Part shown: positions 28,601-63,344 of the stretch, piece by piece
How positions within the stretch are numbered: position 1 is the first letter of the stretch
How the letters are laid out: every line of letters begins with the position of its first letter
Assembly: GCA_023230925.1 (NCBI GenBank)
Contig: JALNWK010000005.1
Location: 13,111 to 77,110, forward strand
DNA: 64,000 nt
From: Limnochordia bacterium
Lineage (GTDB): Bacteria > Bacillota > Limnochordia > DUMW01
Direction: 5' to 3'
Notes under the pieces: model-generated
The model's database searches: none
The model's input: the letters and a program-made list of their open reading frames with translations, nothing else
Told to the model about the DNA's origin: nothing
Program-made: the position numbers and the translations under genes

Positions 28601-31600
28601 CCTTGCCACCACCTCTAACGCAGAAGTAGCACCTTTGATCGCATAGGCACCGGGACTCCTCACTTCACCGAAAATCAACACTTCAGTGGCCATCTGGGGC
28701 ACAACTATGGTCTCCCCGCCACTTAGCATAATGTTCTGAGCAATATTGGGTTGCTGTTCTACTGCTTCGAGATCTATTTTCTCTAACTCAGCACCCTCAG
28801 GACGTGAGAGCATAAGACCACTGGCGTTCGCCTCTTTGGCAAGCCCACCAGCCAGACCTAACACATCAAGAATTGATGCTGATGACTCAAGAGTATAGCG
28901 TCCTGGTCTTGCTACAGCACCAAGGACTGTAACCTGGCGCACCCGCTTGGGAACAAATATGACATCCCCGCCCACTAAGGGTATATTACTACTACCGTCA
29001 TCTTGTAGTAGCGTTTGGCAATTAATCTCTTTGCTTACAAAACTCCCGTTTTCGATTCTCCGTAGGGCAACAGCTTCCACATCAGCAAAGGACGAAAATC
29101 CCTTTGCCTGACCGATAATTTCTAGCAGACCCTGACCCGGCTCTAGGTTATATACACCCGGGGCATTAACCTCGCCAAAGACTACCACCTGGCGTTCTTC
29201 TGCTTTCTCTATGTAGATTACGTCCCCACCGGAAAGAATTGGGTTTAATGGTCCCTTGGGATCTGCCTTTGCCTCAAGGAGGCTGTATCTTTGAGGCTGA
29301 TCCCTATCTTCGCTTGTTAACCAGATTAGGTCAATATCCGCCTCCGGTGTAGTCCCTTCGGCCATAGCAAGTGCGTCAAGGAGTCGAGTAGGTCCAATCA
29401 CCGTATACGTTCCCGGTCGTGTCACTTCCCCAAGCACCGTAATATCCCGTCTAGCCCGAGGAACATAGACCACACCGCCCGGCTCTATAATTGGGCTCAA
29501 CAGTCCATCTGGAGCATCGGACATGGTCTTTTGGACATTGAAGACTCTACGTGTTCCGTCCTTAAGGAGAACATGCACATTTTCCGCATCACCATGTTCA
29601 GCCACGCCGCCGGACATGGCTAGGGCATCGAGTAACCGAATGTCTTCTTGGATATCGAACACACCGGGGCTTTGAACTTCCCCTAACACGACCACTTGCT
29701 TTTGTGCCTTTGGCACATAGATGACGTCCCTAGGTTCTATCGGAAGGTTATCCTCTGGCTTAGTATTGCTCAGAATCGCTGAAACATCTATCGTACACAG
29801 CACTGGCCCTGTGGCTGTCTGCCGAGTCAGACTGACTTCCCCAAGATTTGCCCTTTCCGTAGGCCCTCCCGCTAAGGCGATCATATCCAATAATGTTGCC
29901 TCGGGTAGAATCTCGTATCCCCCTGGCACCCGTATTTCGCCTAAAATGACCACTTGTCGTTCCACCTTGGGAACAATAAGTACCTCACCGCCCTCTAACA
30001 GGCGGTTCGTCTCTGAAAATGGCCGCGCTAACACTTGCTCAAGGTCTATCTCAATCAGGCGAACATCATCGCCGACTCTTAAGCTTAGGCTTGCCGCCGA
30101 CAGGTCCGCTTGAGGAGTAGGACCGCCACCTAGAGCCAAAACGTCTAGTACCGTTAATTCCTTCGCAATCTTGAAGTACCCTGGATTACGCACTTCTCCA
30201 AGGAGCAACACACCCCGGTTGTCTTCGGGGACATACACAACATCCCCTGGCCTAACTAGTACCTCATCACTAACTACCTGACGTAGGGCGTCTCCTAGAT
30301 CCAACTCCTTAATCAGCACTGCATCACTCGTCTGCCGGGTGATGCTGATCTTCGCCTTGTCAGCAGTAACATCCAAACCACCCGCCAACGCCAGGAGTTC
30401 ATAAATGGTGACCCCTTCTTCAACTACATATGTACCAGGATTCCTTACCTCACCTAAGACGATGGCGTGACGTTTTGTCTCAGGAACATAAATGATATCC
30501 CCACCCGACAAATGTGGATTATCCGCTTTCGGCCGTGCAGATATGGCATCTTTCACGTCAACGACCACCGGCTCCGCCTGATCCTTAGAACTAATACTGA
30601 CTTTGGTGGCGTCACCCAACTCGGTAATACCACCAGCGATAGCAATTGCATCCGTAAGCCGACTTCCGGGTCTGAGATCATAGGAGCCTGGACGCTGAAC
30701 CTGACCAAAGACAATAACCTCCCGCTCAGCTTTAGGAACAAAGACAACATCGCCACCGAAAATAGGGATATCCGGCTTGTTCTGATCCTTTTGCAAAATC
30801 GCATCCAGATCGACAACAATGCGCTCTTGTTGCCCTCCTACTTTACGAGTAATACTTATCTGATCTATCAAAGCACCCTCTGTAGTATTTCCTGCCATCG
30901 CAATCAGCTCGAGCAGACTTAAATCACCCATTACCTGGAAGGCTCCGGGATTATTTACCTGACCCAAAATGACTACTTGCTCTGCCTTAGGAACATACAT
31001 AATGTCCCCTGCACATATCTCGATATTGTTGGCCCCACCACCGCTTCTGCGTATTACTTCTAGATCAACTATATGCTGGTCGTCTCCTCTTTGTAACACC
31101 ACCTGACGAAGATCAGCTTCCTTGGAATATCCGCCAGCAAGGCTGAGTAAATCAAGAATCCTGGTACCTTCTCGCACTGTGTAAGCGCCAGGTACATTAA
31201 CCTCACCAAGGACCAGGGCTTTCCTCTCCTTTGGCACAAATACAATATCGCCTGACTCCAGACTAAACTGATCCCGTCTGCCCTCACTGACGATCTGGGC
31301 AAAATCAACGATCTCCAATTGGCCGTCGCGAGTGATCTTAATTTCGCTGATCGACGCCTCCGGGGTCAGTCCTCCGGCCCGAGCAAGCAGCTCTGAGATG
31401 GTTGACTCGGGCTTCAGATCATATAGACCGGGAACCTGTACCTCACCAAATAGCCTTACCTGAATCGTTCTAAACTCCTTAACTACAACGGTTACCCGGG
31501 GACTAACAATTAACTCCTTCATTCGCTCCATCAGTTCATTGGCCAACTGAGAGCTAGACTTTCCCGATGCAACAATATCCCCGGTCAGGGGTGGTACACC

Positions 31601-31771
31601 AATCTTACCATCCGGTCTTATTTGCACAATAGTTAGTAAATCCGGATGACCCCAAACCGAAATCTGCAACACATCGCCGGGCGCTAACAAGTACTCATCG
31701 GCAGCACCATGGGCAGTTGCTGCTAACACACAAACAACGATAATAAGCAAACAATTTACCCTTTTTCTCAT
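25628..31771 (-). CDS. Giant (2047 aa) Wza/KpsD-like polysaccharide export protein with N-terminal Poly_export domain and about 22-23 tandem SLBB domains
   Basis: Signal peptide present. The Poly_export-like N-terminus reads LLAPGDVLQISVWGHPDL...IGVPPLTGDIVASGKSSSQLANEL. The unit V.VLGEV..PG.Y......LLD.IA.AGG then repeats about 23 times at roughly 80-90 aa spacing. Confidence 0.85.
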   Translation of the reverse strand: MRKRVNCLLIIVVCVLAATAHGAADEYLLAPGDVLQISVWGHPDLLTIVQIRPDGKIGVPPLTGDIVASGKSSSQLANELMERMKELIVSPRVTVVVKEFRTIQVRLFGEVQVPGLYDLKPESTISELLARAGGLTPEASISEIKITRDGQLEIVDFAQIVSEGRRDQFSLESGDIVFVPKERKALVLGEVNVPGAYTVREGTRILDLLSLAGGYSKEADLRQVVLQRGDDQHIVDLEVIRRSGGGANNIEICAGDIMYVPKAEQVVILGQVNNPGAFQVMGDLSLLELIAMAGNTTEGALIDQISITRKVGGQQERIVVDLDAILQKDQNKPDIPIFGGDVVFVPKAEREVIVFGQVQRPGSYDLRPGSRLTDAIAIAGGITELGDATKVSISSKDQAEPVVVDVKDAISARPKADNPHLSGGDIIYVPETKRHAIVLGEVRNPGTYVVEEGVTIYELLALAGGLDVTADKAKISITRQTSDAVLIKELDLGDALRQVVSDEVLVRPGDVVYVPEDNRGVLLLGEVRNPGYFKIAKELTVLDVLALGGGPTPQADLSAASLSLRVGDDVRLIEIDLEQVLARPFSETNRLLEGGEVLIVPKVERQVVILGEIRVPGGYEILPEATLLDMIALAGGPTERANLGEVSLTRQTATGPVLCTIDVSAILSNTKPEDNLPIEPRDVIYVPKAQKQVVVLGEVQSPGVFDIQEDIRLLDALAMSGGVAEHGDAENVHVLLKDGTRRVFNVQKTMSDAPDGLLSPIIEPGGVVYVPRARRDITVLGEVTRPGTYTVIGPTRLLDALAMAEGTTPEADIDLIWLTSEDRDQPQRYSLLEAKADPKGPLNPILSGGDVIYIEKAEERQVVVFGEVNAPGVYNLEPGQGLLEIIGQAKGFSSFADVEAVALRRIENGSFVSKEINCQTLLQDDGSSNIPLVGGDVIFVPKRVRQVTVLGAVARPGRYTLESSASILDVLGLAGGLAKEANASGLMLSRPEGAELEKIDLEAVEQQPNIAQNIMLSGGETIVVPQMATEVLIFGEVRSPGAYAIKGATSALEVVARAGGFTLFADTEEVTISRLTDEGYSPIQTQFDLVTPDVVRGGDVIYVPRVERHIWVLGEVRNPGVFQVDEKGLSIMQLLALAGGLTSKADATKINVHVDERSLVVGLDGENQPQNRLVGGEVVYVPATRQGVLVVGEVRNPGYYVPEPGSRVLDLIAMAGGLNEQTASMQGRLSRFGNESDPLPIDLAALVYQGDPKENLVIHGGDVLFIPKENREVVVLGEVRIPGRYTIAAGHDRLLDIIGLAGGLNANARQDAVRIIRADGKQEEIDFVEALTNSDFNLGLKPQDMIYVPRDEREVLVLGEVTRPGHFGYQKGLGPLELLSKAGGATEDADLSGAYILRKSADGSYCRIPADLGKLTSQDVDGFVHILAGDVLYLPRANRRVLILGEVNRPGTYLTEPGDTLLDLIGKAQGPTVQADLERVSLSRDDRTEVLDAKAMMGDVNQDNPLLVGGDIVFIPRANRQVLVLGQVNNPGYYIVDAGARVLDVLAMAKDITPKADPSKVTLVRDEDEIRIYTMDLNAVRQQYDLTSNIEVQGGDVLIVPEGEHDALILGEVSHPGTYPVKEGERLFNLITKAGGLAQDELGEAIVVRKAAMEPRRIVVDLQTVLHEPDSSDNVEVFPGDLVYIPLVRRQVSVLGAVNRPGQYTLLTGDSLLDMVAKAGGLRDDADGDSIIVGDESGEEIYSLTRIASGLMDSPLLSPGCAVYVPMLTQQVLVFGEVRNPGAYPLGTNNRLVDIIALAGGVTDRANTQSITLSRADGAVTHVFDLFSLYKLQGDDVRISPGDIVYVPRARNVMVLGQVRSPGAYLLPQGSRLLDAISLAGGVLPGASLDQITITRTEDDQDVILQADFHALTHQLALNTNYPIQEGDVIFVPEAKLEVVVLGQVKQPGMYSIGPDTRVMDVIAMAGGPTERAALQSVGIYRGADVSQVGEASLGDKLLFEGDVKKANPIVVGGDIIYVPETTSPDWNTIFQFLTGVKLFKDLVTGW
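25700..31500 (-). repeat. Protein-level tandem array of SLBB-like domains; the array period is about 250-270 nt, nucleotide sequences are divergent, and coordinates are approximate
   Basis: The [VI].[VIL][LF]G.V..PG.[YF] motif recurs 23 times in the translated ORF. Confidence 0.7.
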
Positions 31772-31992: not shown

Positions 31993-32919
31993 TTAATGGA
32001 ACACAATGCCATTGATATGTAGTTCCGCTACGGTTTCTCCGAGAATAACCGTCCCTACAGGCATGACCACCTCTGCACCCTTGACCACAAACGCCAGACC
32101 AGCGCCTATGGGGGAACCAAGTACAACTAATCCTGCTGTACCTAGTAGCGCAGCCAAACCCACAGCATCCTGACCCTTTTCCACCTTCGCCGATGGGATA
32201 AGATCTACTAGACTACGGTCGATGGCCTTAACGCTTCCTAGTTCCAAGACAACCTGGGCATCCCTTCCTAGCTGCTTGGCCTGGGTCACTTGCTTAACGA
32301 CTCCTGTTCCTAGCAGTCCCTTAGGTATTACTAGGACATCATCGACAAAAACGTTTTCGTTGATCCGGAACTTAATTTCATCGCCGTCTCGATTCTTGGT
32401 AGAATCTATCCCGTCCATCAATTCTAGTTGCACCACCGTTCCAGCGGGGACAACAACGGACTGCATCTGTATATCCGGGAACAGGGCCAACATGCCTTTG
32501 ATGCGGCCATCAAAGGGCCCGGTGAGTACCTTCCCGTAATAGGCGTTTTCCATAAACTCTAGCTGTGTTACCAAGGAACTATGCTCCCGGACCTCGTTGA
32601 AGGTTAACCATTCCACAGCATTCAATGTCATGCTCAAATTACCAGCGACTTCGTCACTAGGCGCAAGCATGTTCCAGATCTTGTCAACTCTTGGTACTAG
32701 ACTTGCTGTTGAACCACCACTTACACCAAAAAGATCACTTTCTAGCTTACTTACCCTCTGAAACGGTGTAAGATCCTTGGCACTGTAATCCTTCCCATAC
32801 ACCATAGTCTCAATCAATGCAATCCTGTCCAACACCCCTTGGCCATAGACGGGAACGCTGGCACATACTAGAACAATACAGAGAACAGAAATAGCGAACC
32901 CTCTCAATTTAACGGTCAT
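31993..32919 (-). CDS. Secreted hypothetical protein
   Basis: Start MTVKLRGFAISVLCIVLVCASVPVYG with RBS GGGGGG. The mature region is a mixed beta-rich sequence. No family recognised. Confidence 0.45.
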   Translation of the reverse strand: MTVKLRGFAISVLCIVLVCASVPVYGQGVLDRIALIETMVYGKDYSAKDLTPFQRVSKLESDLFGVSGGSTASLVPRVDKIWNMLAPSDEVAGNLSMTLNAVEWLTFNEVREHSSLVTQLEFMENAYYGKVLTGPFDGRIKGMLALFPDIQMQSVVVPAGTVVQLELMDGIDSTKNRDGDEIKFRINENVFVDDVLVIPKGLLGTGVVKQVTQAKQLGRDAQVVLELGSVKAIDRSLVDLIPSAKVEKGQDAVGLAALLGTAGLVVLGSPIGAGLAFVVKGAEVVMPVGTVILGETVAELHINGIVFH

Positions 32920-32955
32920 GCTTGTCCCCCCCACAGGAAATATTAAAACATTTAC

Positions 32956-34515
32956 TTAAAACCTAATAGTAAACTCCGCACTCGCCCGATTGGACTTCGA
33001 GGCCACATCCCCAGAAAAGTCAACCATCTCATATCCTAGGTGGAGCAAAGCATTGCCTCCCACCTCGAACCCAAGGCCGAATGACGTTGTCAAAGTGTTT
33101 ACATTTCCCGACTGCAGACTAATATCTGCTAGCAACTTACGGTCGTTACCCAGCAAATACTCTAGGCCGGCCGTTGTTGTCTGCATGGTACTTAGGACCT
33201 CCAGATCATTATCGCGTTCCCCTTCAAACAACAGACCCGCTTTTACCTTGCCTTGAGGAATCAGAACGTCAAGACCCACTGAGGTTTTCGAACGAGAAGG
33301 TCCCAGTTTCTTATTAAGAAGACTATCAAGATCAACGTACTCATAACCGGCATGTAAAACGCCTACATTATCCACCGTGTAGTTTACGCCTACCGATGTG
33401 GTCTTACTAATTGCCGTTTCTCCATCATAGGCGTTTTCGTTATGCCCAAGCTCAGTTATGAAACGTAGATCACCCATTTTCAACTCCATCTGGTACAAGG
33501 CCAAGTCACCTTCCTGGGTAATCTCACTACTCAAATGACTGTATCCATCGAGAACTCGATTGTACCAGCCAGCAAGCTCCATTATCTCATTGGTGAAAAG
33601 TGCGCCAATGCGAAATGAGCTTCCGCTATCATCGGATGCCGCCGATTGAGAAAACTCTCCAATCAACTCAAGGCCACCGCCTAGTACCCAGCTACCCCCA
33701 AGACTAGTTAGAAACTTCGCTTTTTCCTGATCCCAGACTCCTGAAGGTGCTTTCAAGGCGTAACTGGCGTCAAGCATAATCTGATCAGTCAATCGAAAGG
33801 AGCCATCTAACGCGGCCATATAGTCGTTTTGATCTCTTTGTTTTGACTGGGCAACTAACAACTGCGAATTCCAGAAATTCGTCTGCACACTACCGGGCAA
33901 CCACTTATTGACTTCTGACCAAGGACCGTCCCCTAAGGGAATCATACTCAATACGAGGGGACTGGCTGGACCATTCAGGACATCATTCAGAGGAAACACC
34001 ACTCCTTTGTGCCCTTCTTCCCCAGCCAATAGCTGCGAAATCCTATACAAAACACGACCGTCTTGCCCATTACCTCCGAAAACGTAAAACGTATTCGCGG
34101 TTTCGCCTATGTCAACGGCGCGCCAGTTCTGCAACGAATAGACTGCCAACTCCGTATCCAGACCAAGCAACTTTAGTTCAGGCCGAAACTCCTTCTCTAA
34201 CCGTAGCAATAAACCAGCACTAGCCCGATTCAGCGCCTGGATCTGAAATCCTTGCTCCTCCCAGGAATCAATGTTTAGACTACTGAAAATCCTAGAAACA
34301 AGCAACGCCATCTCGTATCGGCTTACGGTCTGACCATCTTGAAACCCGCTGGAATAGACCTCATCGATTAGGCCATAGCCGGCCAGTTCTCTAAACGCGG
34401 TATATGACCAATGCTCCTTCGGCACATCGCTCAAGGAATCTAGGGCGGACACGGGCCCGGCAATTAATAGGATACAAATGAGAATAACCAATGGATACAC
34501 ATTACGTCCTCGCAT
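32956..34515 (-). CDS. OmpM-like outer-membrane protein: N-terminal SLH domain plus C-terminal beta-barrel
   Basis: Signal peptide, then SLH motif DVPKEHWSYTAFRELAGYGLIDE...GFQDGQTVSRYEMALLVSRI. The C-terminus ends ...AEFTIRF, a terminal aromatic typical of OMP barrels. RBS AAGGAGGG. Confidence 0.75.
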   Translation of the reverse strand: MRGRNVYPLVILICILLIAGPVSALDSLSDVPKEHWSYTAFRELAGYGLIDEVYSSGFQDGQTVSRYEMALLVSRIFSSLNIDSWEEQGFQIQALNRASAGLLLRLEKEFRPELKLLGLDTELAVYSLQNWRAVDIGETANTFYVFGGNGQDGRVLYRISQLLAGEEGHKGVVFPLNDVLNGPASPLVLSMIPLGDGPWSEVNKWLPGSVQTNFWNSQLLVAQSKQRDQNDYMAALDGSFRLTDQIMLDASYALKAPSGVWDQEKAKFLTSLGGSWVLGGGLELIGEFSQSAASDDSGSSFRIGALFTNEIMELAGWYNRVLDGYSHLSSEITQEGDLALYQMELKMGDLRFITELGHNENAYDGETAISKTTSVGVNYTVDNVGVLHAGYEYVDLDSLLNKKLGPSRSKTSVGLDVLIPQGKVKAGLLFEGERDNDLEVLSTMQTTTAGLEYLLGNDRKLLADISLQSGNVNTLTTSFGLGFEVGGNALLHLGYEMVDFSGDVASKSNRASAEFTIRF

Positions 34516-34607
34516 CTTCCGCCCTCCTTTAGCAGTACTCACTAGGTTGTGATATTCGCCATGCTTATCTTGTTTTCCTTGTTCGATACTATGATCACAG
34601 ACTGGAT

Positions 34608-34997
34608 TTAAAACTTGCAGTGAAGAAAAAAACGTTCGGCTAAAATTTCGGCCACTATATCGTCATAGGGCTCTGGCGGGACCTGCAGGGAGGTTGGTAA
34701 TAACCGACGCCATCCAGTGGGTTTGTTGTACCTCCAATACCGTCTTCGCGCTTCCTCGCTGGAACGATGCTCATCCACAAACTCAATAGGCAAACCATTA
34801 CCAACCAACTGGGCTATTTCTCTAGCACCAGTGCGATTTCCGATAACAATCACCTCTGGACCATATCTCGCCATCAATCCTCTAGCAAACTCGCCAATCG
34901 CATCGACACCTACAACCCCTCGCAAGATTGTACCATGTTGGTCGGCTACGGCAATGCCGCATTTAGACGTACCTGGGTCTATTGCCAAAATCCGCAA
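34608..34997 (-). CDS. RuvX/YqgF-like RNase H-fold putative Holliday-junction resolvase / pre-16S rRNA nuclease
   Basis: MRILAIDPGTSKCGIAVAD N-terminus, 129 aa. Confidence 0.6.
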   Translation of the reverse strand: MRILAIDPGTSKCGIAVADQHGTILRGVVGVDAIGEFARGLMARYGPEVIVIGNRTGAREIAQLVGNGLPIEFVDEHRSSEEARRRYWRYNKPTGWRRLLPTSLQVPPEPYDDIVAEILAERFFLHCKF

Positions 34998-35170: not shown

Positions 35171-35204
35171 CCAAAAAAAGCCCCCGGATAAATCACCCGG
35201 GGGC
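35171..35204 (-). terminator. Strong intrinsic terminator after the giant SLH protein gene
   Basis: GCCCCCGG-ATAAATCA-CCGGGGGC, followed on the minus strand by TTTTTTT. Confidence 0.8.
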
Positions 35205-35222
35205 CTACGTTCTCGATTACCT

Positions 35223-38200
35223 TTAGAAGCTGAACCCAACTGTCGCAAGGGCTTCCCATACCTGATAATCTTCATCAACGTTGGTATCCCAGCACAGCTC
35301 AGCATAGTTACTGCTCAGCGAAATGTTAAAACCGTTACCGATTGGGTAAACATACTTCATGTCAGCAGTTCGAGCGCTAAAGCGATCTGATTTCTTGGTA
35401 TCAAGCCCAGCACTCTGCTTTGCAGCTAGACTTAAGCTACCACCGTAAAGCTGACGATCAGCCGTAAGTGAAAGCTTACTCTCTGGAGCAAGACTAGCAT
35501 TGGTAAGCAAATCAGTACTCTGACCGTACTCAACACCAACACCCACCTTGGCATTGAGCAATTCTCCAGTATAATCAAGTCCGATACTGGCAGTCCCTAC
35601 CTTATCCGTTACAGTAGAGCTAAGCAAGTCCTCCGTTGTGGTAACACGATACCCAGCAGCAAACATCAAGCCATCACCGGCATCAATGACCGACCTCAAT
35701 CCACCTACGGTCTTGCGGTTCTCCTGCCACTTATCCAGTTCGGTCCACTTGTTATCTACGATTTCCCTCGTAGTCCACTGATACGTTGCATCAAGACTGA
35801 CTCCGGGACCTACTGGCATCTTATCGATATTCAGTGCCACTTGATAGTGCTGCCTATCATCGACACCAAGCTCCTTCAAATTAGCCACATCTAAATCAAG
35901 TACTACAGGCAAATCGAAGGGCGCTATCTTTCTGGAAACAGATAGTTTGCCGATAGAGTGATCCAGCTCGTCAGTGGTGGAGAAATCTCTGGTGAAGTAT
36001 GCACCATACAGGTCAAAGTCGAGTATATTCCGCTTAGCATCCAAAAGATTCTCTATCTTGGAGCTTTCACCACCGTCATCCTTGGTCGTGATATCCCTGC
36101 GCTCATAGCCAAGCTCGGCTCCAAAAACGTCGACGTTCTTCAAAGTGGTAATATTAGATAGTTCGTAATGGCCTTTCGTCACACTAGTATCTAGTCTACC
36201 AACTTGTTGAGTAAGCTTTGCACCAAACACAGGAGCCGAGGCCGTTAAGACATACTTCCTTTGATCCGGTAAAAGATCCCCGTCTTTGCTCTTGAAGTCC
36301 TTCGCATATTTCGGAGCAAATCCCTCAGCAACGTTTCCATAGTCGAAACCAATATCTATAATCCCAACGTTGGTCCCAAGTTTGACGTCGGTTGCGGTAA
36401 CGCTATCTGCCTTGTACGAATCTACCGTATACTTTAGGTCATAGTCAATATTACCAATCGAGCCTACAGTACCAATCTGGCCCACCCGGTCACGAGCATA
36501 TGCTGGTGCCCCGGCGCCAACATGGGGGTCTGTGAACCAACTTACCAGTCGAGTATACAGTTTCCCAGTTGCAACATCAAATTCACCGTAAACAGCAGCT
36601 AGATACTCACCCACATTAAGCCGTGAGAAGTACACATCAGCCCTTACAGTATCGCTAAAGGCGAGTTTGGAACTAACACCAAACATCTTCAGTGGCTCGA
36701 TCTTCTTCTTGTTAATGGTGTATTTGTCAAAGGAACCAGCGATCTCGTCATGGCTCAGTGAGCCAAAGTAAGCTAGTCTAAGCACATCGGGAGTTTCCAC
36801 CCTGACACTCATATCCGACAGACGCACGTTAAAGTCCGGATCGCTGCCGAAGAAGTTGGTCACCGTTGCCAAGCTTCCCTTAACCAGTACGTTATCACTA
36901 GGATAAGCCTCAAAACCAAAGGTTAACTTGTGTGCGAATCTGCTCACAGCAGGATCGTACAGCTTCGGATTGGAGGTCTTTGTATCCCTTACATGAGGAT
37001 CTTTGTATAGCTTTGCAGCATCCCCTGCCACGACAGCCCTGTTAACTAACTCTAGGCTAGTATCACCAAAGAACCTGACCTTCCCAAACTTAGCCGCGAA
37101 CTCCTCAAAGGAACCAGATAGAGCATCGTGGTCCTTGCGCAGATCTTGCTGCTGTGCTGCCAACTTTCCGGTGGCATCCTCAAGATCTCCCACGGCCACT
37201 CGCAGTTCCTGTTGTCCTTGCTCGACCTTTGCCAACCGGCTACTCAGGAGTTCCTGGGTGCTCTCAATGTTCTTAACCTCAGTATCCAGCGCCACCACGA
37301 AGGAGCGTAGATCATCTAATCCTGTAGCACCGGTCTGCAACTCGGCCTTGAGTTCACTGATCGTGGCCTCGATTCGATCGGCACGTTTGTTGGTGCGTTC
37401 TATCCTAAATAGGAGATCACCCATCTTTGAGTCTAGCACTGCATTACGAGACTCAAATAACGAAAGCATACCCTTTATGCCATCAAATTCTTCCTGCAAT
37501 TCTGCCTCAGTCAGATCCAGTTTCGCTTCGATTCGCTCAACCTGTTTGTTTGCTCGTCCAATTCTAAACAAAAGATCGCTTAACTTCGAATCGATCACGG
37601 CATTCTTCGAGTCCAAAACAGAAATTGCACTCTTTACAGCAACGATCTCGTCTTCTAGTTCCGCATTGGTGGCATCAAGCTGCTTCATGATGGAAGCTGT
37701 TTTCAGATCGATTAGTGCCTTTAGACCGTCCACATCCTTAGACATGGCCGCCAGTTGCACGTCAAAAAGACCCATTTGGTCATTGAGTAGGTCTGTGACC
37801 TGCTGTAGCTTGGTGGCTACTTCGGATGCTTCAAGTGCGGTCTGCTCGGCGGTCTTACTGATCTCCAGTCCTTCCTTTGCCACAGTTAGTGCTTCAGCGG
37901 CGGAAACCTGTGCCTCTTGCCCCAACTTGACTGCCTTCTCGCCAAGGGCCTTGGCCTCCTCGGAATATGCAACAGCCTCAGCAGATCTGGTTAGGGCCGC
38001 ATCACTATTCTTAACAGCGGTCTGCGCCATTTCTGCAACTTCAGGGCCGGTAGTATCGGTGCTTTGTTGAACCTTCAATGCGATTGCTTCGGCCCGACTA
38101 GCGGTTTCTGCTGTTGCATCGCTTAGTGCCTTAAGTTCCTCCAGCACTTTGGCAATTTCAGCACTCTGGTCCTTAGCCTCAGCAGCTGTGGAGTAGGCCC

Positions 38201-39095
38201 CGTTTCCAATTCGCATGGCTTCTTCAGCTGTATTTCTGCTGGCAGCCGCTACCTCGCTGCTAGCCTTAGCAATCTCCAATGCCCGTTCAACCGAAGCCTG
38301 AGCCTCTGCCAATGCGTTACCATAGTCAGCCAGTTCCTTCTCAAGCAGATCAGTTTTGTTGCTAGCAAGCTCTGCAATAACCTTGACTTGGTCCAGCTGA
38401 TTGGTCAGCCCAGCGATCTCATCACTGTTAAGCTTTAACATCTCCAAGGCGTCCTCTTTGGATAGCCCGGGGGTTAGTTCACTCAATCTTTCAGCAACGA
38501 GATCTGTTACCAACGCCCGAACATATGCCTCGGTTTCCTTTTCGAAGGCATCCTGATCGGCTGTAAGTTGATCCACAAGCACCGCCTGTGCGGAATCAAA
38601 ATCCGCTTTCAAACCAAGCTTTGCCTTTTCCAGACATTCTCTGATCTCTTCTTTTTGGTCGATAGAAGCCTTATCTAGGACTGCCATGGCTTCGGCAAAT
38701 TTCGCAGAAAGAGTATCAAGTTCTGCTGCGATAGCTTCGTCAAGCTTGTCCCCAAGCTCTCCGGCGACTCTCTTAGTAATTCGCTCCTCAAAGGAATCTA
38801 GGCTTTGACCCAGTTGCCACTCGATCTCTGATGAAGCGTATTCCTCAATATCCGAAATGAGTCTCGACATTACCATAGCCATTTCGTATCTAGTGAATGA
38901 ATTGCTTCCCTTGTATTCCCCATCAGGGTAGCCAATAACAATACCCGTTGCAGCCAGCTCAGCAATGGCATCATATGCCCAGTGGTTCTCTGCTACATCC
39001 GGAAATGGCATTTTTGATGCATAGGTAGTAAAAACTAAGCCTACCACAAGAGAACATATCGCAACAACAATTACAGGTGTTGTACGTTTGAACAT
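35223..39095 (-). CDS. Giant (about 1291 aa) envelope protein: signal/TM, SLH domain, roughly 700-aa Ala/Glu/Leu-rich coiled coil, C-terminal beta-barrel-like domain
   Basis: Start trimmed to MFKRTTPVIVVAICSLVVG. SLH motif FPDVAENHWAYDAIAELAATGIVIGYPDGEYKGSNSFTRYEMAMVMSRL. Long heptad-repeat region, then a beta-rich region with alternating hydrophobics ending ...EALATVGFSF. Confidence 0.8.
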   Translation of the reverse strand: MFKRTTPVIVVAICSLVVGLVFTTYASKMPFPDVAENHWAYDAIAELAATGIVIGYPDGEYKGSNSFTRYEMAMVMSRLISDIEEYASSEIEWQLGQSLDSFEERITKRVAGELGDKLDEAIAAELDTLSAKFAEAMAVLDKASIDQKEEIRECLEKAKLGLKADFDSAQAVLVDQLTADQDAFEKETEAYVRALVTDLVAERLSELTPGLSKEDALEMLKLNSDEIAGLTNQLDQVKVIAELASNKTDLLEKELADYGNALAEAQASVERALEIAKASSEVAAASRNTAEEAMRIGNGAYSTAAEAKDQSAEIAKVLEELKALSDATAETASRAEAIALKVQQSTDTTGPEVAEMAQTAVKNSDAALTRSAEAVAYSEEAKALGEKAVKLGQEAQVSAAEALTVAKEGLEISKTAEQTALEASEVATKLQQVTDLLNDQMGLFDVQLAAMSKDVDGLKALIDLKTASIMKQLDATNAELEDEIVAVKSAISVLDSKNAVIDSKLSDLLFRIGRANKQVERIEAKLDLTEAELQEEFDGIKGMLSLFESRNAVLDSKMGDLLFRIERTNKRADRIEATISELKAELQTGATGLDDLRSFVVALDTEVKNIESTQELLSSRLAKVEQGQQELRVAVGDLEDATGKLAAQQQDLRKDHDALSGSFEEFAAKFGKVRFFGDTSLELVNRAVVAGDAAKLYKDPHVRDTKTSNPKLYDPAVSRFAHKLTFGFEAYPSDNVLVKGSLATVTNFFGSDPDFNVRLSDMSVRVETPDVLRLAYFGSLSHDEIAGSFDKYTINKKKIEPLKMFGVSSKLAFSDTVRADVYFSRLNVGEYLAAVYGEFDVATGKLYTRLVSWFTDPHVGAGAPAYARDRVGQIGTVGSIGNIDYDLKYTVDSYKADSVTATDVKLGTNVGIIDIGFDYGNVAEGFAPKYAKDFKSKDGDLLPDQRKYVLTASAPVFGAKLTQQVGRLDTSVTKGHYELSNITTLKNVDVFGAELGYERRDITTKDDGGESSKIENLLDAKRNILDFDLYGAYFTRDFSTTDELDHSIGKLSVSRKIAPFDLPVVLDLDVANLKELGVDDRQHYQVALNIDKMPVGPGVSLDATYQWTTREIVDNKWTELDKWQENRKTVGGLRSVIDAGDGLMFAAGYRVTTTEDLLSSTVTDKVGTASIGLDYTGELLNAKVGVGVEYGQSTDLLTNASLAPESKLSLTADRQLYGGSLSLAAKQSAGLDTKKSDRFSARTADMKYVYPIGNGFNISLSSNYAELCWDTNVDEDYQVWEALATVGFSF

Positions 39096-39432
39096 GTGAT
39101 AGTACCCTCCCTCATAAGCATGTACGACTTGATTACGTAGAAATCTCCCTATGTATGTCAATGCAGCCATAGGGTGCAGGTTAATTCTGATCTATACTTG
39201 ACAGCCCGGCCGGTAGTTGCCCGGCGACTAACAAGAGCACCCCCCCTTTCGGCAATATACCTGCCGGACGCTAGAATAGAGGTAGCATGGATACAACATC
39301 CGACACTTCAATATCACATTCGCTAGTAACCTGCAAAATCCTTCTTGAAAATCAACATATCTTCCAGATAGTTGTGTCCATCGCCGTTGTGTTGGATAAT
39401 GTAGCAAATCTTATCAAAACCATGGAGACCCA

Positions 39433-40108: not shown

Positions 40109-41467
40109 CTAGCCTACAACAACAGGTCCCTCGGGATACCGAACCCCATCCCCTTCAGGAGCCACAAGTCTTCGTCCAAGAGCAAGAGCCAAGGTAACTG
40201 GCCCAATTCTTCCTGCAAACATGACCATCATGATCAGGAGCTTGCCTAGACCAGACAATACTGGTGTAATACCAGTAGATAAACCAACCGTACCGAAGGC
40301 AGAAACGACTTCAAACAAGACGGGCAGGATGGGCAGGTCTTCAATAGCTAAGAGCACCATAGTTACAGTGACTATTAGGGCTAAGGCCAATACCATGATG
40401 CTTAGAGACCTCCGGACGGTCCTCTCTGAGATTCGACGATAGAACAACACATTATCATTCTGTCCTTTAATGGAGTTCCCAACGGCAACCATAATACAAG
40501 CGAAGGTTGTCGTCTTGATACCACCACCGGTGGACCCAGGTGATGCCCCGATAAACATCAGTAGTAATATAAAAAACAAGGTGACTGGACGCATTTGCCC
40601 TACGGGTACCGTATTGAACCCGGCAGTACGTGGGGTCACGGCCTGAAAAAATGCGGCTGTAACCTTTGCCCCAGGATCCAATGGCCCTAGTGTCATCGGA
40701 TTATGGTACTCGGCGACCAGAACAAAAATAAAGGCCCCGGCAATAAGAACTAGCGTACTAACTAGAACTATCTTTGAATGCAAGGATAGCATGCGAAACC
40801 TACGCTTAACAGTGGCCTCTCTTAGCACAAAAAAACCTAGTCCCCCGGCAATAATCAAAAATGAGATCACGAGATTGACAACAACGTCACCCACAAATCC
40901 TTCAAGGCTTGTTCCGAAAAGATCAAACCCTGCATTGTTAAAGGCAGATATTGCGTGGAACACCGCGAAGAAAAAGGCACGACCTGCTGGCATGTCCCCG
41001 ACCCAATGAAGAAAGAGAATCACAGCACCAATGCCTTCAAATATCAGCGCGATCTCGATGATCAGTCGCGCCATTCTGACTACGCCTGAAACAGATATGT
41101 TATTCAGATCCTCTTGAATCAGCTGTCTTTGACGAATACCAATTCTTTTGCCAAGGAGCAAGGCAAACAACGTGGACATGGTCATAATCCCAAGTCCCCC
41201 GATTTGAACTAGAATCATTATGATCGTTTGACCAAACCGGGAAAATCCAGTGGCAGTATTTAGTACACTCAAGCCCGTAACACAGGTGGCCGAAGTGGCC
41301 GTAAAAGCTGCATCAAGAACGGATAACTCGACACCCGGGCGAGTTGCTATAGGCAGTTTCAGTAGTAGTGTGCCTACTACAATTACGGAGAAATATCCAA
41401 GACCTAATACCTGAGCTGGTGTTAGTCTTTCAATGGAAAAAACCCAATGTCTTTTTCTATGCATCAT
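40109..41467 (-). CDS. ktrB: K+ transporter membrane subunit (TrkH/KtrB family)
   Basis: 452-aa polytopic protein with repeated pore-loop GLG/GGG motifs. Confidence 0.8.
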   Translation of the reverse strand: MMHRKRHWVFSIERLTPAQVLGLGYFSVIVVGTLLLKLPIATRPGVELSVLDAAFTATSATCVTGLSVLNTATGFSRFGQTIIMILVQIGGLGIMTMSTLFALLLGKRIGIRQRQLIQEDLNNISVSGVVRMARLIIEIALIFEGIGAVILFLHWVGDMPAGRAFFFAVFHAISAFNNAGFDLFGTSLEGFVGDVVVNLVISFLIIAGGLGFFVLREATVKRRFRMLSLHSKIVLVSTLVLIAGAFIFVLVAEYHNPMTLGPLDPGAKVTAAFFQAVTPRTAGFNTVPVGQMRPVTLFFILLLMFIGASPGSTGGGIKTTTFACIMVAVGNSIKGQNDNVLFYRRISERTVRRSLSIMVLALALIVTVTMVLLAIEDLPILPVLFEVVSAFGTVGLSTGITPVLSGLGKLLIMMVMFAGRIGPVTLALALGRRLVAPEGDGVRYPEGPVVVG

Positions 41468-42777
41468 TCGTTTCCTTTAGTCTCGGCTACCACAAGCTCG
41501 ATTTGGAGCTTACCTGTATTCCACGTATCATGTTGGGCAACAGCATTTACGATAAGGGTTCCTTCACTATCCCGCACCGCAGCTATTGCTTTGAAAAACT
41601 CCTCACCGCTTGTTTGCCCAACTCGTCCTTCGGTATCGGTGACCATACCCTTTGCAATGGCCAACTCATTAACTTGCCGTAGCAAGGACAAAATAACGTC
41701 CTCTATATTTTGGGTATCACCGCCGAGAACCTCCACACTGGCCAGCACTTCCCCTTTTTGGAACACCTTCTGCCTGGGTTTGATATCAAACCAAACAACT
41801 ACCCCTTCTCCTAATACAGTGTTTCCGTGGGCCACCGCCCGGACAACGTATTGGCCGCTTTCCTCTCCGAGAACACGCACCACTTGATCAAAGTGTTCTT
41901 CTGAATATAGCATAATCGCGTAGTTATCCTTGCCTTCAATTCGTGCCCCTCGACCGAGGGCTACTTGGTTGGCACGTAACAAAAACTGCACTAGATCCAA
42001 TTGTGCGGCGTCTTGTCCTTTTCCGCCCTCCATCACTTGAGCAAAGACTATCTCGTTTGCTTTGAATGCAAGATGTCCGTACCTCATCTGTTCGTTAAAT
42101 CGTTGATATGCCTCATCAAGCTTTTGATATTGTTCCAAAAGATTGACAATCTTAGTCTCAAGCAAGGTCTCCCGTTCCTGAAGCTCCCTAACCTTTGCTT
42201 GGATCATCTCACTTGCATCCTTAAGGTTCTCCACTCTTTCCTTCTCAAACTCCAGATCCTTCTCTGTAGTGGCAAGATCCTGTTTTGCCTGTAAATAAGC
42301 GCCTTGGATATCCTGAAGCTGCTGAATCACTATAGCCCTCTCTTGACGCGCTTCTTCTAGTTCCCGCATAGCTTCATTGCGCTGTTCCTCCATGAATGAT
42401 AATTCTTGTGCCTTCACTGTCACCTCAGACCGCAACGATTCCACCCTTAGTTGCTGTTCAGCGAGAAGGTCTTCGGCGTCTTCCAATAGTCTCTGGCTTT
42501 CCTCATAGCGACTCTCGCTTGTAGCTAGGGCCTGTTTTACTTCTTTCATGTGGAAAAGAGCTGTTCTGACATCCTCGGAGACTATCGACATTACCGTTAC
42601 ACTTGCCGCTGCAATGACCACACCGGTAAGAACAGTAATTATCATAGAGGTATATCTGGGTCGCATACCTAGAAGGGTTAGTCGTTTTTTACCAATCTTC
42701 ATCCCAATCCGATCCCCAATAAAGGCAATAACTCCACCGGTAATGATCAGTAATACAACTAACACAAAACCGCCCAC
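41464..42777 (-). CDS. Membrane-anchored coiled-coil protein (DUF3084-like)
   Basis: N-terminal TM helices followed by about 200 aa of coiled coil and a C-terminal globular domain. The family assignment is from memory. Confidence 0.5.
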   Translation of the reverse strand: MGGFVLVVLLIITGGVIAFIGDRIGMKIGKKRLTLLGMRPRYTSMIITVLTGVVIAAASVTVMSIVSEDVRTALFHMKEVKQALATSESRYEESQRLLEDAEDLLAEQQLRVESLRSEVTVKAQELSFMEEQRNEAMRELEEARQERAIVIQQLQDIQGAYLQAKQDLATTEKDLEFEKERVENLKDASEMIQAKVRELQERETLLETKIVNLLEQYQKLDEAYQRFNEQMRYGHLAFKANEIVFAQVMEGGKGQDAAQLDLVQFLLRANQVALGRGARIEGKDNYAIMLYSEEHFDQVVRVLGEESGQYVVRAVAHGNTVLGEGVVVWFDIKPRQKVFQKGEVLASVEVLGGDTQNIEDVILSLLRQVNELAIAKGMVTDTEGRVGQTSGEEFFKAIAAVRDSEGTLIVNAVAQHDTWNTGKLQIELVVAETKGNE

Positions 42778-44740: not shown

Positions 44741-47700
44741 CTACTTGCTGCTAATCGGAGTACCTGTTACCAAACTCATGAACGCCGTCATCAAGGCTTC
44801 GCTAGCCCTATTCCAATCAGGGATCTCATAATCTGCAACTTGCCCGATTGCACTAGGAAGTATTTCCGTACTTAGGCTTTCCCACAATTGCCGTGCTTCA
44901 GCCGCAACCTGATTAACATCATGGCGCTCCTCTAAGGACCGTTGAATAGTGAGTAATGTCCCCAAGGGATCCTGCAGCAGTGTCTCGAGGAAAACCTGCT
45001 CATTCTCATCAAGCGCATTCCAACTCCAGTCCCGACGGTCCACATCGAATCTCCAGTCTAACCCCGCTAGGGTTTCATCGAAGGCTGCCGCTACGGTGGT
45101 CATGTTTAGTGCCTCGGCTCTGGCACGGAAATCAACCATGGCGATATCTACAACTTCGGGCATCCGCTTGATTTCCTCCTTTACCCCAATCAGATGCCTT
45201 GCAGCTCCGATTAGCAAAGCGGCTTGCTCTACATCCAACGTTCTGACCTGGTTAGATGCCTCAATCAAGATACTATTTGCTGTGGCATAGCCAACATTCT
45301 GACCTCGATCGGATATGGTCTTTAGGGCAGCTGAGGTGGTGTTCATGATCGTCTGCAACCGACCACCAAGTGAAGTCTCACCTACCCAAAGCGTCTCAAA
45401 TACAAACGTATTGATTGCCTCGGCCGTTTCAGGAAAACCATCGGATGTGGCAACTGCTGCTAGTTCCTCATATAGTATGAACTGTGTTTCCCTTAATAGA
45501 GGAATCACATTGGCCGCATTAAGCTGTTGGCTACACAGTTGCTCTATACAACGATTAAAGACACCTCGAGCGTCCTCTTCCGTAATGCCCACTTCACTCA
45601 ACCGCGCAAACAGGTTCGGCTCCAACTCGCTATAGGTCGTCTTTACCTCGCTAATTGTACTGTTCAATCCGGTATTCAGTGCTGTGTAAACTTCATCAAC
45701 CAGTTGCTCAGTTAGATTCAGGTCAGGATAGGCGATGAGCGCATCAGATAAAGTCATGAAGCAGTCCGCCATATAGCTTTGGATTTGTGCTTCAGTGTAG
45801 CCAGACCCAAAAGCACAGCTTAGCCCATCACCCAATACAAGTATAGCCGCTTCTACATCACCAACCAAAACCTTCGTGGTTGCCAATACTCTGTAGTTAT
45901 CCACCGTCGGGAACTCAGTCACCAACTGTTCAGCATATTCCAAAGCAGAATTGAAGTCTTGAGTCTCCTCCAAGCAGATCCTAATGATCAAGTGCAAATC
46001 AGCTTCTTCTAATACGGCACCGGGCCAGTGAATCGCCTTATCCAAGGAGGCAATCGCCTCTTCAAACTTGTCGAGGTTATACTTAGCTACACCCATCATT
46101 GAGTGCATACGAGCAGTCTGATCGCTGTCGCTAAGTAGCCCTAGGGCTTGCTCCAAATCTGCCTCCGCTAAAGCCCACTCTGTCGAACTCACTTCCATTT
46201 CCGCACGACGTACATACGCCCACCCAAGGTCCACAGCATAACTAGCATCTAACCCATGGGCACTGGTTAGATAAGAGATAACATTATCAATCTCCTCGGC
46301 TCCTTGGGCAAGCATGTAGTAACACAGGGCTTGCTTTTCATTGTACAGAGCGGAGCCTGCGGGATAATCAAGGGCTGCCAGTTGGTACTTCTCGATAGCC
46401 CCTTGGTAATCCTCACTTGTAAATAGAGCCTCTGCCCATGCGGCATAGGCTTGCCCCCGGGCGGTTTTGTTCTCTTCACTATCTACAAGGGTAATGGCAT
46501 CGGTATATGCACCAATCGCTTGCTCATAGAAAGCTCCGTCCAAATACAGAGCACCAAGGGCTAGATATACATCCGCCTTACTTGCGATGTACTCAATCTC
46601 CCCGGTGGGATTTACGTATATGGCCAAGTCAAGCTTTGTTAGGGCTTGCTGCAAGGACTCCAAAGTCCCAAGTTCAACAAGCTCCAAAGCCCACTGGTAA
46701 TAGGCTAATCCATGGGCCTGGTTGTATTCTGTCTTTTGATCTGACTGCACTGCCATGGCAAAGTAGTTAACTGCATCAGCCCAATTCTCTGCTGCCATTT
46801 CCAGATTACCCAGGGCGAAATAGACCGCCGCCTTATTGGCAACATAGCCTGCTTCGCCATCAGGATGAATGGCAATAGCTAAGTTAAGTTTCTCTAAGGC
46901 CAGTTGCAGACTAGCTTCATCCCCTGCTACCGCCAATTGCAGTGCCCAATCACGATAGGTCTCGCCAAACGCTTGACGATTCTCCTCCAGCAATGCGGGC
47001 CAGAGCGCAAAGGCTTGGTTGTAGTAGTCTATAGCTGTTTCGTACTGACCGGCTGACTTGGCTGCAATCGCTTGATTGACTAGATTGCGGGCCTTTTGTT
47101 CATCGCTTGGCCAAAGATCCTCAATGGGTGTGCGAGTTACTAGACTCATAAAGGCTTCCATTAAGGCCGTTGCAGCAGTATTCCACTCTTCTACGGTGAA
47201 GTCCGGAATTTGGCCAATGGCCTCGGGAAGAATCTCGGTACCTACACTGTGCCAAAGGGCCATGGCCGCTGCGGCTGAATCATTTACATCATCATGTTCT
47301 TCCATTGCTCTTTGGATTACTAGTAGGATGCCCACTGGATCCTTCAGAAATGTCTCCAGAAATGCCTGTTCGTTTTCCTCTAGGCTATTCCAGTCCCAAT
47401 CCCGACGGTCTACATCAAACTTCCAATCATTGGCTGCTAAGACTTCATCAAAGGCTGTGGCAATTCCACCAAGCTGTAGCGCCTCAGCCCGCTCTTTGAA
47501 TTCTGCCAAAGCTATTTCAATAGCCCGGGGCATCTTCCGGATCTCATCACGGACGCTAATAATATGCCGTGTCGCTCCAATGAGTAACACTGCTTGCTCC
47601 ATATCCAAGTCGTAACCAACATAATCTGCACAATCCCAAAGGAGGTTCACAGCTACAGCTGAACCCAGAACCTCATTTCGATCAGATATGCCCCGCAAGG

Positions 47701-49483: not shown

Positions 49484-50545
49484 CTTTTCCGGCGGTTCAG
49501 GTACCGGTAGCACTAAATCAGCAACTGCATCAATATCTCCACCGGCACCAATGACATCACTTAGCGTATCAAGTGCGGCATTGATCTGGGAGAGAGATTC
49601 ACCATTTCGTACAATGTTGGAAAGAACTGAAGTAGTCCTTGTCATTTCCTGTCCCGACATACCCATATCCGCGGCATCCTGAAAAAGGGCCTGTAAGCGA
49701 CTAAGTAAACCTTCCACTTCTGCTGCACTCACCGATTGTCCGATTGCAGAGGAAAGGGCGGATAGAAGGTTCTCAAGTCCGGTGTCGGATATCCCAAGCT
49801 CCGCTCCATCTACAACAAGACCCGTGATCTGGGCAATCAACCGATGGACTTCATCTGCCGTGTTACACCGGAGGGATGCCTCATACAAAGCCTGGATGGT
49901 ACCTCTTACTACACTTGAACCGCCCATCTGTCCTAGGAAATCCTGTAGATACTCGATAACCTGCAACATATTAGTAGCATCACCTAGGGAAGCCACTATT
50001 TCCATAACGCTTAGCGTATCTTCGAGCGTCTGCTGACTATAATCAAGATCACCCATTTGCGTAAGAAAACCACTCAAGCTGGTGACGACATCACTAAGCT
50101 GATCAGGATCCTGGGTTGTCTTGCCGGTATTACCAAGCACCGCGGATACCTGGATAACGATCGTTGCACTTTGCTTCTGCTTGATCAAGTGAGTCACGAA
50201 TAACTCCACGTCATCGTCCCTGCCGTACTGGCTGGCGATGATCAAGTTCGATGCAACCTGCCCTGCTGTAGTAACAGAATAGCCTTCTTCCAGGACTGCT
50301 GGCACCGTATCCCCAATAATACCTTGGGGTATGACGGGATTTGACACATCAGCCAATGCCGCAGCTAGTGTGTTTGATACACTTTGCCAGAGAGCTAATT
50401 CTCTAAAGTAGTCGAGGTTAAGTGCTTCTACCTCCGACTGCACTTGGACCCATTGGGAATCAGAGAGCCCCTGTGCATTCACAATAGAACATAATAGGGT
50501 AAATAGTAACATAACGATAACGGGAATAGAGCTACGTCTTCTCAA
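44741..50545 (-). CDS. Giant (1934 aa) secreted TPR-like repeat protein composed of a unique N-terminus plus two copies of a roughly 790-aa unit
   Basis: Signal peptide [29 protein letters not shown]-like helical repeats of the form [13 protein letters not shown]. The second half repeats the first with long identical stretches. Confidence 0.85.
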
Positions 50546-61119: not shown

Positions 61120-61148
61120 TCGCAAAAACACAGAACAACCCCCTACGC

Positions 61149-63242: not shown

Positions 63243-63344
63243 CGGGCTCCCTCCCCAAGATATGGATAATGCGTTTGACTTTTGCATTAGCATTATACCA
63301 TAGGTGGAAAGGGAGCAGAACAAGCAAATTGGGCTACTTATGTC

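Follow-up and report, generated by a model that had tools for sequence, protein, structure and literature searches.

A Putative Outer-Membrane Connector with a Large Barrel and a Very Long Coiled-Coil Stalk in a Limnochordia Bacterium

Introduction

How is an outer membrane held to the cell wall when the protein that appears to connect the two carries a helical stalk of several hundred residues, and how far apart would such a protein allow them to be? This question is raised by an open reading frame (ORF) on the minus strand (35223..39095) of a 64,000-nucleotide stretch of DNA from the metagenome-assembled genome of an uncultured Limnochordia bacterium (contig JALNWK010000005.1, positions 13,111 to 77,110), hereafter called the window. 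An initial annotation, made from the sequence of the window, had described the product as an outer-membrane tether consisting of a domain of S-layer homology (SLH), an over-long coiled coil and a beta-barrel. Here this gene, its relatives and its neighbours are analysed computationally.

Tethers of the OmpM/SlpA type are thought to be the ancestral means of holding the outer membrane in Terrabacteria, and one way in which two-membraned cells are proposed to have become one-membraned is by losing such tethers. The envelope of Limnochordia is almost unstudied. The class represents one of three diderm lineages of Firmicutes (PMC11456536; bioRxiv 10.1101/2021.05.31.446380). In the solved OmpM and SlpA structures three chains provide three barrels; their coiled coils join into one parallel stalk, and their SLH domains into one three-lobed module by which the wall is bound (PMC9388160, PMC10628300).

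By its architecture the protein belongs to the SlpA/OmpM superfamily, without being a member of the SlpA_C family by sequence. Its stalk is two to three times longer than that of any studied example, and no stalks of such length, which if straight would measure up to about 90 nm, have been described. The type of protein is known. What is new is that a Firmicute has the large barrel, that the stalk is extremely long and modular, and the idea that the stalk might act as a ruler. With slightly more confidence than doubt, the protein is read here as connecting the outer membrane to the cell wall and as belonging to a type, found in Limnochordia-like diderm Bacillota, with a large barrel and a very long stalk, in which the stalk is a long and largely extended tether or spacer.

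Domain Architecture and the C-Terminal Barrel

The ORF probably starts with the ATG at 39095, about 9 nucleotides downstream of a GGAGGG sequence (GAGGGAGGG), and ends with a stop codon at 35223..35225. It encodes 1290 amino acids; the ORF had been correctly delimited, and the previous count of 1291 included the stop codon. A longer reading from an ATG at 39170, which has no ribosome-binding site, was rejected. The features of the gene and the protein are listed in Table 1.

The N-terminal part consists of a probable Sec signal peptide and a single SLH domain. Residue A26 is invariant in the family alignment, and the SLH motifs W39, GYPDG, and TRYE (68-71) are likewise invariant columns. When the protein was compared with the PDB using phmmer, it matched Veillonella parvula OmpM (8bys, 8bym, 8bz2; E 7e-15 to 2e-13) and Deinococcus radiodurans SlpA (7zgx; E 8e-10) in their SLH regions, and the matches of this sequence search were confined to the SLH region. 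Together with the Pfam match these hits confirm the SLH domain of the initial annotation. The protein thus displays a signal peptide followed by one SLH domain with W, G..G and TRYE-type ligand motifs, a coiled coil between this domain and the barrel and, at the level of prediction, an outer-membrane barrel with a C-terminal beta-signal, which is the order of elements expected for the SlpA/OmpM superfamily.

The C-terminal part (residues 685-1290) was modelled with AlphaFold2 using a family alignment of seven sequences, and the mean pLDDT of the model (its predicted score in the local distance difference test) was 73.6, with a predicted template-modelling score (pTM) of 0.54. A disordered junction is followed by 31 beta elements in an unbroken up-down meander. 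The barrel would accordingly have about 30 strands, both this count and its closure being estimates. Among PDB structures, the best Foldseek match of the model was to SlpA from D. radiodurans (8ae1_A, E 8e-8; 7zgx_A, E 4e-7; template-modelling (TM) score 0.42), followed by LptD, BtuB, and MtrB, and every match is an outer-membrane barrel. The C-terminal domain is therefore modelled as a transmembrane-type beta-barrel and not as a soluble fold, the outcome that had been set as a test of the earlier reading. The beta-rich character and the VGFSF terminus proposed at the outset hold as well, although the domain comprises roughly 570 residues and not about 500. The terminal F is found in all 38 complete family members. 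In the junction preceding the barrel, the acidic motif YKDPHVRD... (DP..RD) is conserved, its residues D692, D699, and D704 being invariant across the relatives; the motif might bind a metal or form part of a neck.

With about 30 strands the barrel could enclose a wide pore, and both OmpM and SlpA conduct nutrients (PMC10628300). The protein might then serve mainly as a very large channel in the outer membrane, or as an array-forming, S-layer-like protein, with tethering being secondary, and the "S-layer" seen on cultured Limnochordia could consist of regular arrays of this barrel. S-layer-like lattices have been seen on Geochorda and Carboxydochorda, where the only named candidate in one of the strains is an SLH-domain protein and none was found in the other (PMC11456536), and the SlpA of Thermus was long described as S-layer-like. 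However, this leaves both the 600-residue stalk and its variation in length unexplained, the channel and tether roles are compatible within the SlpA/OmpM superfamily, and the present evidence is silent on pore size and lattice formation. This role is considered improbable as the principal one.

Table 1. Features of the long-stalk gene, its product and its flanking regions (positions in the window).
Feature	Position	Strand	Basis
Sec signal peptide, residues 1-26 (MFKR, hydrophobic run, cleavage at TYA/S)	39018..39095	minus	read from sequence
Single SLH domain, residues 30-73	38877..39008	minus	Pfam PF00395, E 3.4e-10
Proximal stalk, residues 86-213, helical with many register breaks, ends at ELTPGLS	38457..38840	minus	AlphaFold2, periodicity
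Heptad coiled-coil stalk, residues 214-680	37056..38456	minus	register fit, periodicity, AlphaFold2 helix
Repeat module copy 1, residues 496-545, SKNAVIDSKLSDLLFRIGRANKQVERIEAKL...	37461..37610	minus	self-alignment
Repeat module copy 2, residues 549-598, SRNAVLDSKMGDLLFRIERTNKRADRIEATI...	37302..37451	minus	self-alignment
Stalk-barrel junction, residues 681-720	36936..37055	minus	pLDDT <50 at local residues 1-36
Predicted beta-barrel domain at the C-terminus, residues 721-1290, with ~30 antiparallel strands	35226..36935	minus	AlphaFold2 model
C-terminal beta-signal, ...WEALATVGFSF	35226..35255	minus	read from sequence
Intrinsic terminator directly 3' of the stop codon	35178..35206	minus	13-bp stem, 8 G-C pairs, T run
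Conserved upstream non-coding block	39201..39350	minus	80% identity to P0002 locus

The Coiled-Coil Stalk

The stalk sequence (residues ~86-680) contains much Ala, Glu, Leu, and Lys, while Pro and Gly are nearly absent. A heptad register was fitted to residues 86-690 by an ad hoc dynamic-programming procedure, and the result was compared with 100 shuffled sequences. The score was 0.41 per residue, against 0.26 +/- 0.017 for the shuffles (z about 9), and the fit contained 17 register breaks (27 +/- 4 in the shuffles) and a longest unbroken heptad run of 143 residues (67 +/- 18). In the fitted register 82% of the a and d positions are hydrophobic, compared to 28% of the other positions. Unbroken runs cover residues 214-271, 272-338, 376-434, 470-527, and 532-679, and discontinuities in the heptad stalk are few (272, 339, 361, 376, 435, 470, and 528/532). 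A hydrophobic period of 3.5 residues is strong at 231-335 and 371-475 (z 5-8) and moderate at 476-685, while for residues 91-230 the period peaks at 3.64-3.70 and not at 3.5. The stalk also gives SMC/Rad50-type coiled-coil matches in NCBIfam. The coiled-coil signal across most of the central region, on which the earlier reading had been made to depend, is thus present, with a heptad periodicity well above that of the shuffles.

The stalk was also modelled with AlphaFold2 as a monomer (residues 1-720, alignment of six sequences). The confidence of this model is low (pLDDT 57); it places helices at residues 69-207, 213-344, 350-519, and 523-670. The stalk is a nearly continuous helix of ~600 amino acids, of which ~470 are regular coiled coil. 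The long coiled coil of the initial annotation is therefore retained, but not its length of ~700 residues. If straight, the stalk would be about 70-90 nm long (0.148 nm per residue).

A long trimer-type coiled coil might also belong to an extracellular fibre or adhesin, pointing outward as in the trimeric autotransporters, and the first homology search indeed returned many SLH-containing adhesins of the YadA type. However, those matches share the SLH domain only (4-7% of the query), the barrel is predicted to have ~30 strands per chain and not 4, and the SLH domain is situated at the N-terminal tip of the stalk, its ligand being a wall polymer in the periplasm. An adhesin must be regarded as very unlikely. 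The surface fibre that had been mentioned as an option disagrees with the topology in the same way, since the SLH domain binds the periplasmic wall polymer and the N-terminus of the barrel faces the periplasm. The reading as a trimeric autotransporter was rejected, the SLH domain being all that is shared; Pfam identified no YadA anchor (PF03895), head or stalk domains in the protein.

Relationship to Known Tethers

The nearest analogue is the large-barrel SlpA of Deinococcus-Thermus (D. radiodurans and T. thermophilus; 7zgx, 8ae1; SlpA_C, PF21620), which provided the best Foldseek match of the barrel. SlpA connects and spaces the outer membrane and the wall, and in D. radiodurans its 28-nm stalk matches the 30-nm gap between them (PMC9388160). 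The two proteins differ in several respects. The stalk of SlpA comprises about 160-190 residues (28 nm), compared to about 600 here, and its barrel comprises 914 residues, compared to about 570; the long lumen insertions are therefore probably missing from the shorter barrel. The hosts of SlpA belong to Deinococcus-Thermus, while the host of the present protein is a Firmicute. The barrels also have no significant similarity in sequence. Pfam SlpA_C has no match in the protein at E <= 0.01, and the relative P0005 obtained 21 bits, which is under the cut-off, the gathering score of PF21620 being 35 bits. An hhalign comparison of the family profile with a true SlpA_C protein gave a probability of 0.4%, and a local SlpA_C hidden Markov model gave 4.5 bits with high bias.

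The strongest SLH match (E 7e-15) is to the OmpM proteins (V. parvula OmpM1, 8bym/8bys; Selenomonas Mep45). OmpM has the same three-part layout, and its gene occupies the same place as the one described here in the outer-membrane gene cluster of diderm Firmicutes. It is both a tether and a porin (PMC10628300), and its SLH domain binds polyaminated peptidoglycan. However, its barrel has 16 strands and its stalk ~40 residues, and a protein with ~30 predicted strands and a stalk of ~600 residues falls outside the range of the Negativicutes OmpM porins (16-18 strands, short stalk of ~40 residues). A protein of 528 amino acids encoded nearby (32956..34542, minus strand) is a closer counterpart of the OmpM type. 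Limnochorda pilosa WP_068139859 belongs to the same class and superfamily; it is OmpM-like and is listed as 14-stranded, with a small barrel and a short stalk (von Kugelgen et al., 2022). The survey of von Kugelgen et al. (2022) makes no mention of a large-barrel, long-stalk paralog family.

The Ompalpha of Thermotoga maritima also combines an N-terminal SLH domain with a very long coiled coil. Its coiled coil spans the periplasm over 45-50 nm, and the fibres, ~50 nm long and located under the toga, join the toga to the thin peptidoglycan (PMC10160955). Ompalpha is only ~400 amino acids long, with a stalk about half the length of the present one, and ends in a transmembrane helix, its barrel partner being a separate protein. 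In the protein studied here the barrel is fused to the stalk, and neither a C-terminal hydrophobic helix nor the Ompalpha arrangement of a transmembrane helix plus a separate barrel is seen. The classification as OmpM/Ompalpha-like was right as to the superfamily, while the closest analogue is SlpA.

Barrels of 28-30 strands have been reported as confined to Deinococcus-Thermus (PMC10628300), and the stalks of OmpM proteins other than SlpA have been stated to be much shorter than that of SlpA (PMC9388160). The family described below departs from both of these statements.

A Family of Proteins with Variable Stalk Length

A profile of the barrel was compared with 1.84 billion representative proteins, which gave 81 matches with an E-value of 1e-3 or less, 27 of them with 1e-30 or less. 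Judged by these sequences it is a small family, entirely from uncultured Bacillota: the named members are all proteins from metagenome-assembled genomes designated as Limnochordia, "Firmicutes/Bacillota" or "Clostridia". The family became visible because an exhaustive search of representatives was used. When the barrel alone or the barrel alignment was compared with a word-indexed database, two proteins only were found, and a search of the GTDB genomes with the single protein gave a sole relative, at the SLH level. The closest relative, P0002, is 54-67% identical and syntenic.

Stalk length, taken as the number of residues separating the SLH domain from the beginning of the barrel, was measured in the 38 complete sequences. 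The shortest stalk has 134 amino acids and the longest about 720, with a median of about 310. The stalk of ~600 residues is the fifth longest among them; it is long, as first proposed, without being a one-off, since long stalks are found throughout the family.

An internal duplication is found in the stalk, where residues 496-545 align with residues 549-598 (nucleotides 37302..37610) with a period of 53 amino acids and a score of 123, compared to 30 +/- 5.5 for shuffles. A duplicated segment had been noted before, as one of ~47 amino acids near 37330..37640; the duplication is real, while its coordinates are shifted and the period is longer. The 53-residue module aligns with a stalk region that is found family-wide (EFxxELxxLGVRVxxLE), and P0002, which shares the period of 53, contains four copies of the module compared to the two found here. 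Other members display other periods: 37 amino acids in P0104 and P0109, ~45-47 and 90 in P0093 and P0095, 14 in P0062 and P0077, and 51 in P0056. The long stalks, as read from these repeats, arose via unrelated tandem duplications with a period that differs by lineage, and what changes within the family seems to be length and not sequence.

Proposed Function

The following mechanism would be in agreement with a connector having an extended stalk. The precursor would leave the cytoplasm via Sec, and the C-terminal ~570 residues would be inserted by the beta-barrel assembly machinery, forming a barrel of ~30 strands in the outer membrane. Three chains would assemble in parallel, such that the ~600-residue helical regions become one trimeric coiled-coil stalk, and the three single SLH domains would meet at its far end as a three-lobed module that binds, by means of the TRYE motif, a secondary polymer linked to the wall. 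The stalk would then be a long, largely extended spacer or elastic tether limiting the distance from outer membrane to wall to roughly 70-90 nm, and its length would be tuned in evolution through tandem duplication of modules (53 residues; two copies here, four in the nearest relative). That there is one SLH domain per chain implies a stoichiometry of three chains, as in the solved OmpM and SlpA, and a parallel homotrimer is inferred from this by analogy, together with how many of the d positions carry beta-branched residues (26 of ~86). The binding of a ligand by the SLH domain, the straightness of the stalk and its effect on the width of the periplasm are likewise inferred. A long stalk combined with a large barrel suggests an outer envelope that is very wide or loosely held.

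Several observations weigh against an extended connector of this type. The first ~130 residues of the stalk do not have heptad regularity. The helix is broken at 208-212, 345-349, and 520-522, giving four segments of 132-170 residues, and four helical segments of similar length would be expected of a folded bundle. The monomer model folds the helices back on each other in a manner that resembles the hairpins of chemoreceptors and Smc. The barrel model is of moderate quality, judging from its pTM and its TM score to SlpA, and in sequence the barrel is not significantly similar to Pfam SlpA_C. The ORFs scanned in the window did not include a csaB. The adjacent 528-residue paralog has only ~45 stalk residues, which is hard to square with a uniform gap of 70-90 nm; because this short-stalk protein must reach the same wall, a straight long stalk should be treated with caution. 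Finally, a parallel between stalk length and the size of a neighbouring SLBB protein, described below, comes from two genomes (n = 2).

Some of these observations would be better accommodated if the family and the anchoring were the same while the stalk was something other than a straight 90-nm rod. It could be folded at the three conserved breaks to a bundle of ~20 nm, or it could form a periplasmic mesh, with the stalks oblique or parallel to the wall; the periplasm would then be of ordinary width, and the extra helix would serve elasticity, lateral scaffolding or the binding of partners. Apart from the breaks, the antiparallel hairpins of the model and the short paralog, this agrees with the invariance of both L207 and P209, which mark the first break, across the relatives, and with the compact alternative conformation of the stalk described for V. 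parvula OmpM (PMC10628300). However, parallel homo-oligomeric coiled coils that are modelled as monomers often fold back artefactually, and at this level of confidence the hairpin shape cannot separate an artefact from a genuine fold-back. Four antiparallel passes would also set the SLH domain beside the barrel and defeat the role as spacer, and right before the barrel the heptads continue unbroken for about 145 residues. The five-fold variation in length, brought about by unrelated repeats, is better explained by selection on end-to-end reach, and both of the known long stalks, those of SlpA and Ompalpha, are extended in situ (PMC9388160, PMC10160955). A folded or oblique stalk is therefore regarded as possible but doubtful, and the extended connector is preferred.

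A bolder version of the extended connector would give the cell a toga-like envelope with a gap of 70-100 nm. The stalk would then be a ruler that each lineage tunes by module duplication, and other machines that span the periplasm, such as a Wza-like SLBB exporter, would scale along with it. The window encodes a candidate for such a machine at 25628..31771 (minus strand), a secreted protein of 2047 amino acids in which a Poly_export domain precedes 23 SLBB repeats, arranged in tandem with a period of 78-86 residues; its gene is followed by Wzz, tyrosine-kinase-like and CpsB genes. An ordinary Wza contains two SLBB domains. The protein with 23 may be a very long periplasmic export conduit, and its presence, while no more than suggestive, would agree with a periplasm of great width. 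The syntenic protein in the genome of P0002 (locus L001) is 2444 amino acids long with at least 26 repeats, and this is the genome with the two additional stalk modules. No further SLBB giants were found within 10 kb of the long-stalk genes at six other loci; the contig of P0095 ends right after the gene. The ruler is put forward tentatively, and with clearly less confidence than the connector itself.

To our knowledge, an influence of tether length on the width of the periplasm has been shown only with engineered Lpp in Escherichia coli. A natural five-fold series of stalk lengths is well suited for asking whether such proteins set this width, and the cultured relatives Limnochorda, Geochorda, and Carboxydochorda could be used for checking the prediction. 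Barrels of ~30 strands and stalks of up to ~700 residues would widen the known range, in which large barrels were considered specific to Deinococcus-Thermus and the longest stalks are 28-50 nm. If the ruler were true, no longer envelope spacer would be known, and a large-barrel connector of the SlpA type would for the first time be placed outside Deinococcus-Thermus.

Genomic Context and Transcription

The window contains genes for LptA, a 724-residue ORF, LptB, LpxC, LpxA, LpxI, LpxB, an MsbA-like protein, a second LptB, and LptFG, and is thus the lipopolysaccharide and outer-membrane gene cluster expected of a diderm Firmicute. This context agrees with the tether of OmpM type proposed for the long-stalk gene. 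Eight related loci retain, fully or largely, the order LptB, LptFG, DUF3084, (TrkH/A in two), the long-stalk gene, a RuvX-like gene, the short paralog, and a gene for a ~310-residue protein. The proteins encoded downstream comprise ~130-148 (RuvX-like), ~460-600 (the next protein) and ~306-314 amino acids (secreted protein without a Pfam match). The last four genes of this order are found as a module wherever downstream sequence is present, in seven of the eight loci.

An equivalent of the short paralog is found 3' of the long-stalk gene in these seven loci, while the contig of the eighth (P0095) stops right after the long-stalk gene. The N-terminus of the short paralog falls below the Pfam threshold, yet it matches the SLH domain of OmpM in a PDB search (E 1e-4). 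The protein contains the stalk motif of the family (EFxxELxxLG), its beta domain matches the profile of the large-barrel family with 38 bits, and it ends with ...EFTIRF. The other two members of the module encode a RuvX/YqgF-like protein of 129 amino acids (34608..34997, minus strand) and a secreted protein of 313 amino acids without a Pfam match (31993..32934, minus strand).

The DUF3084 protein (41464..42777, minus strand) comprises 437 amino acids, with an N-terminal membrane segment and a coiled coil of ~160 residues. Its gene is found upstream of the long-stalk gene in the window and in seven of the eight related loci, mostly directly adjacent to it; here and in L001 TrkH/A intervene. The length of the DUF3084 proteins (404-470 amino acids) does not follow that of the stalks.

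In the window trkA adjoins the long-stalk gene on the upstream side, with a gap of 337 nucleotides. The gene had been proposed to be a monocistronic unit with a terminator and a promoter region of its own. The terminator, a strong hairpin, was identified (35206..35178), while the minus strand of 39096..39432, where the promoter had been placed, gave no sigma-70-like site; neither was a terminator found after trkA. A separate transcript for the long-stalk gene is plausible. The upstream block in Table 1 is more conserved relative to the P0002 locus than most of the coding sequence, which is 51-73% identical. It has no Rfam match, the Rfam scan of the whole window being empty, and the folding energy of the conserved region shows no excess (z 0.24). 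The block is probably a promoter or a 5' leader; it may be an unusual promoter, or the 5' leader of an abundant mRNA for an outer-membrane protein.

Two further genes of the cluster encode large proteins. Directly upstream of LptB/LptFG, 44741..50545 (minus strand) encodes 1934 amino acids, in which Pfam matches only TPR, near residues 1240-1505. The 724-residue ORF (61149..63323, minus strand) has no Pfam match and is located between LptA (63345..63983) and LptB (60400..61155). Proteins of 738-777 amino acids, also without a match, are found at the same position in L006 and L008, and the ORF may represent a divergent LptD-like component.

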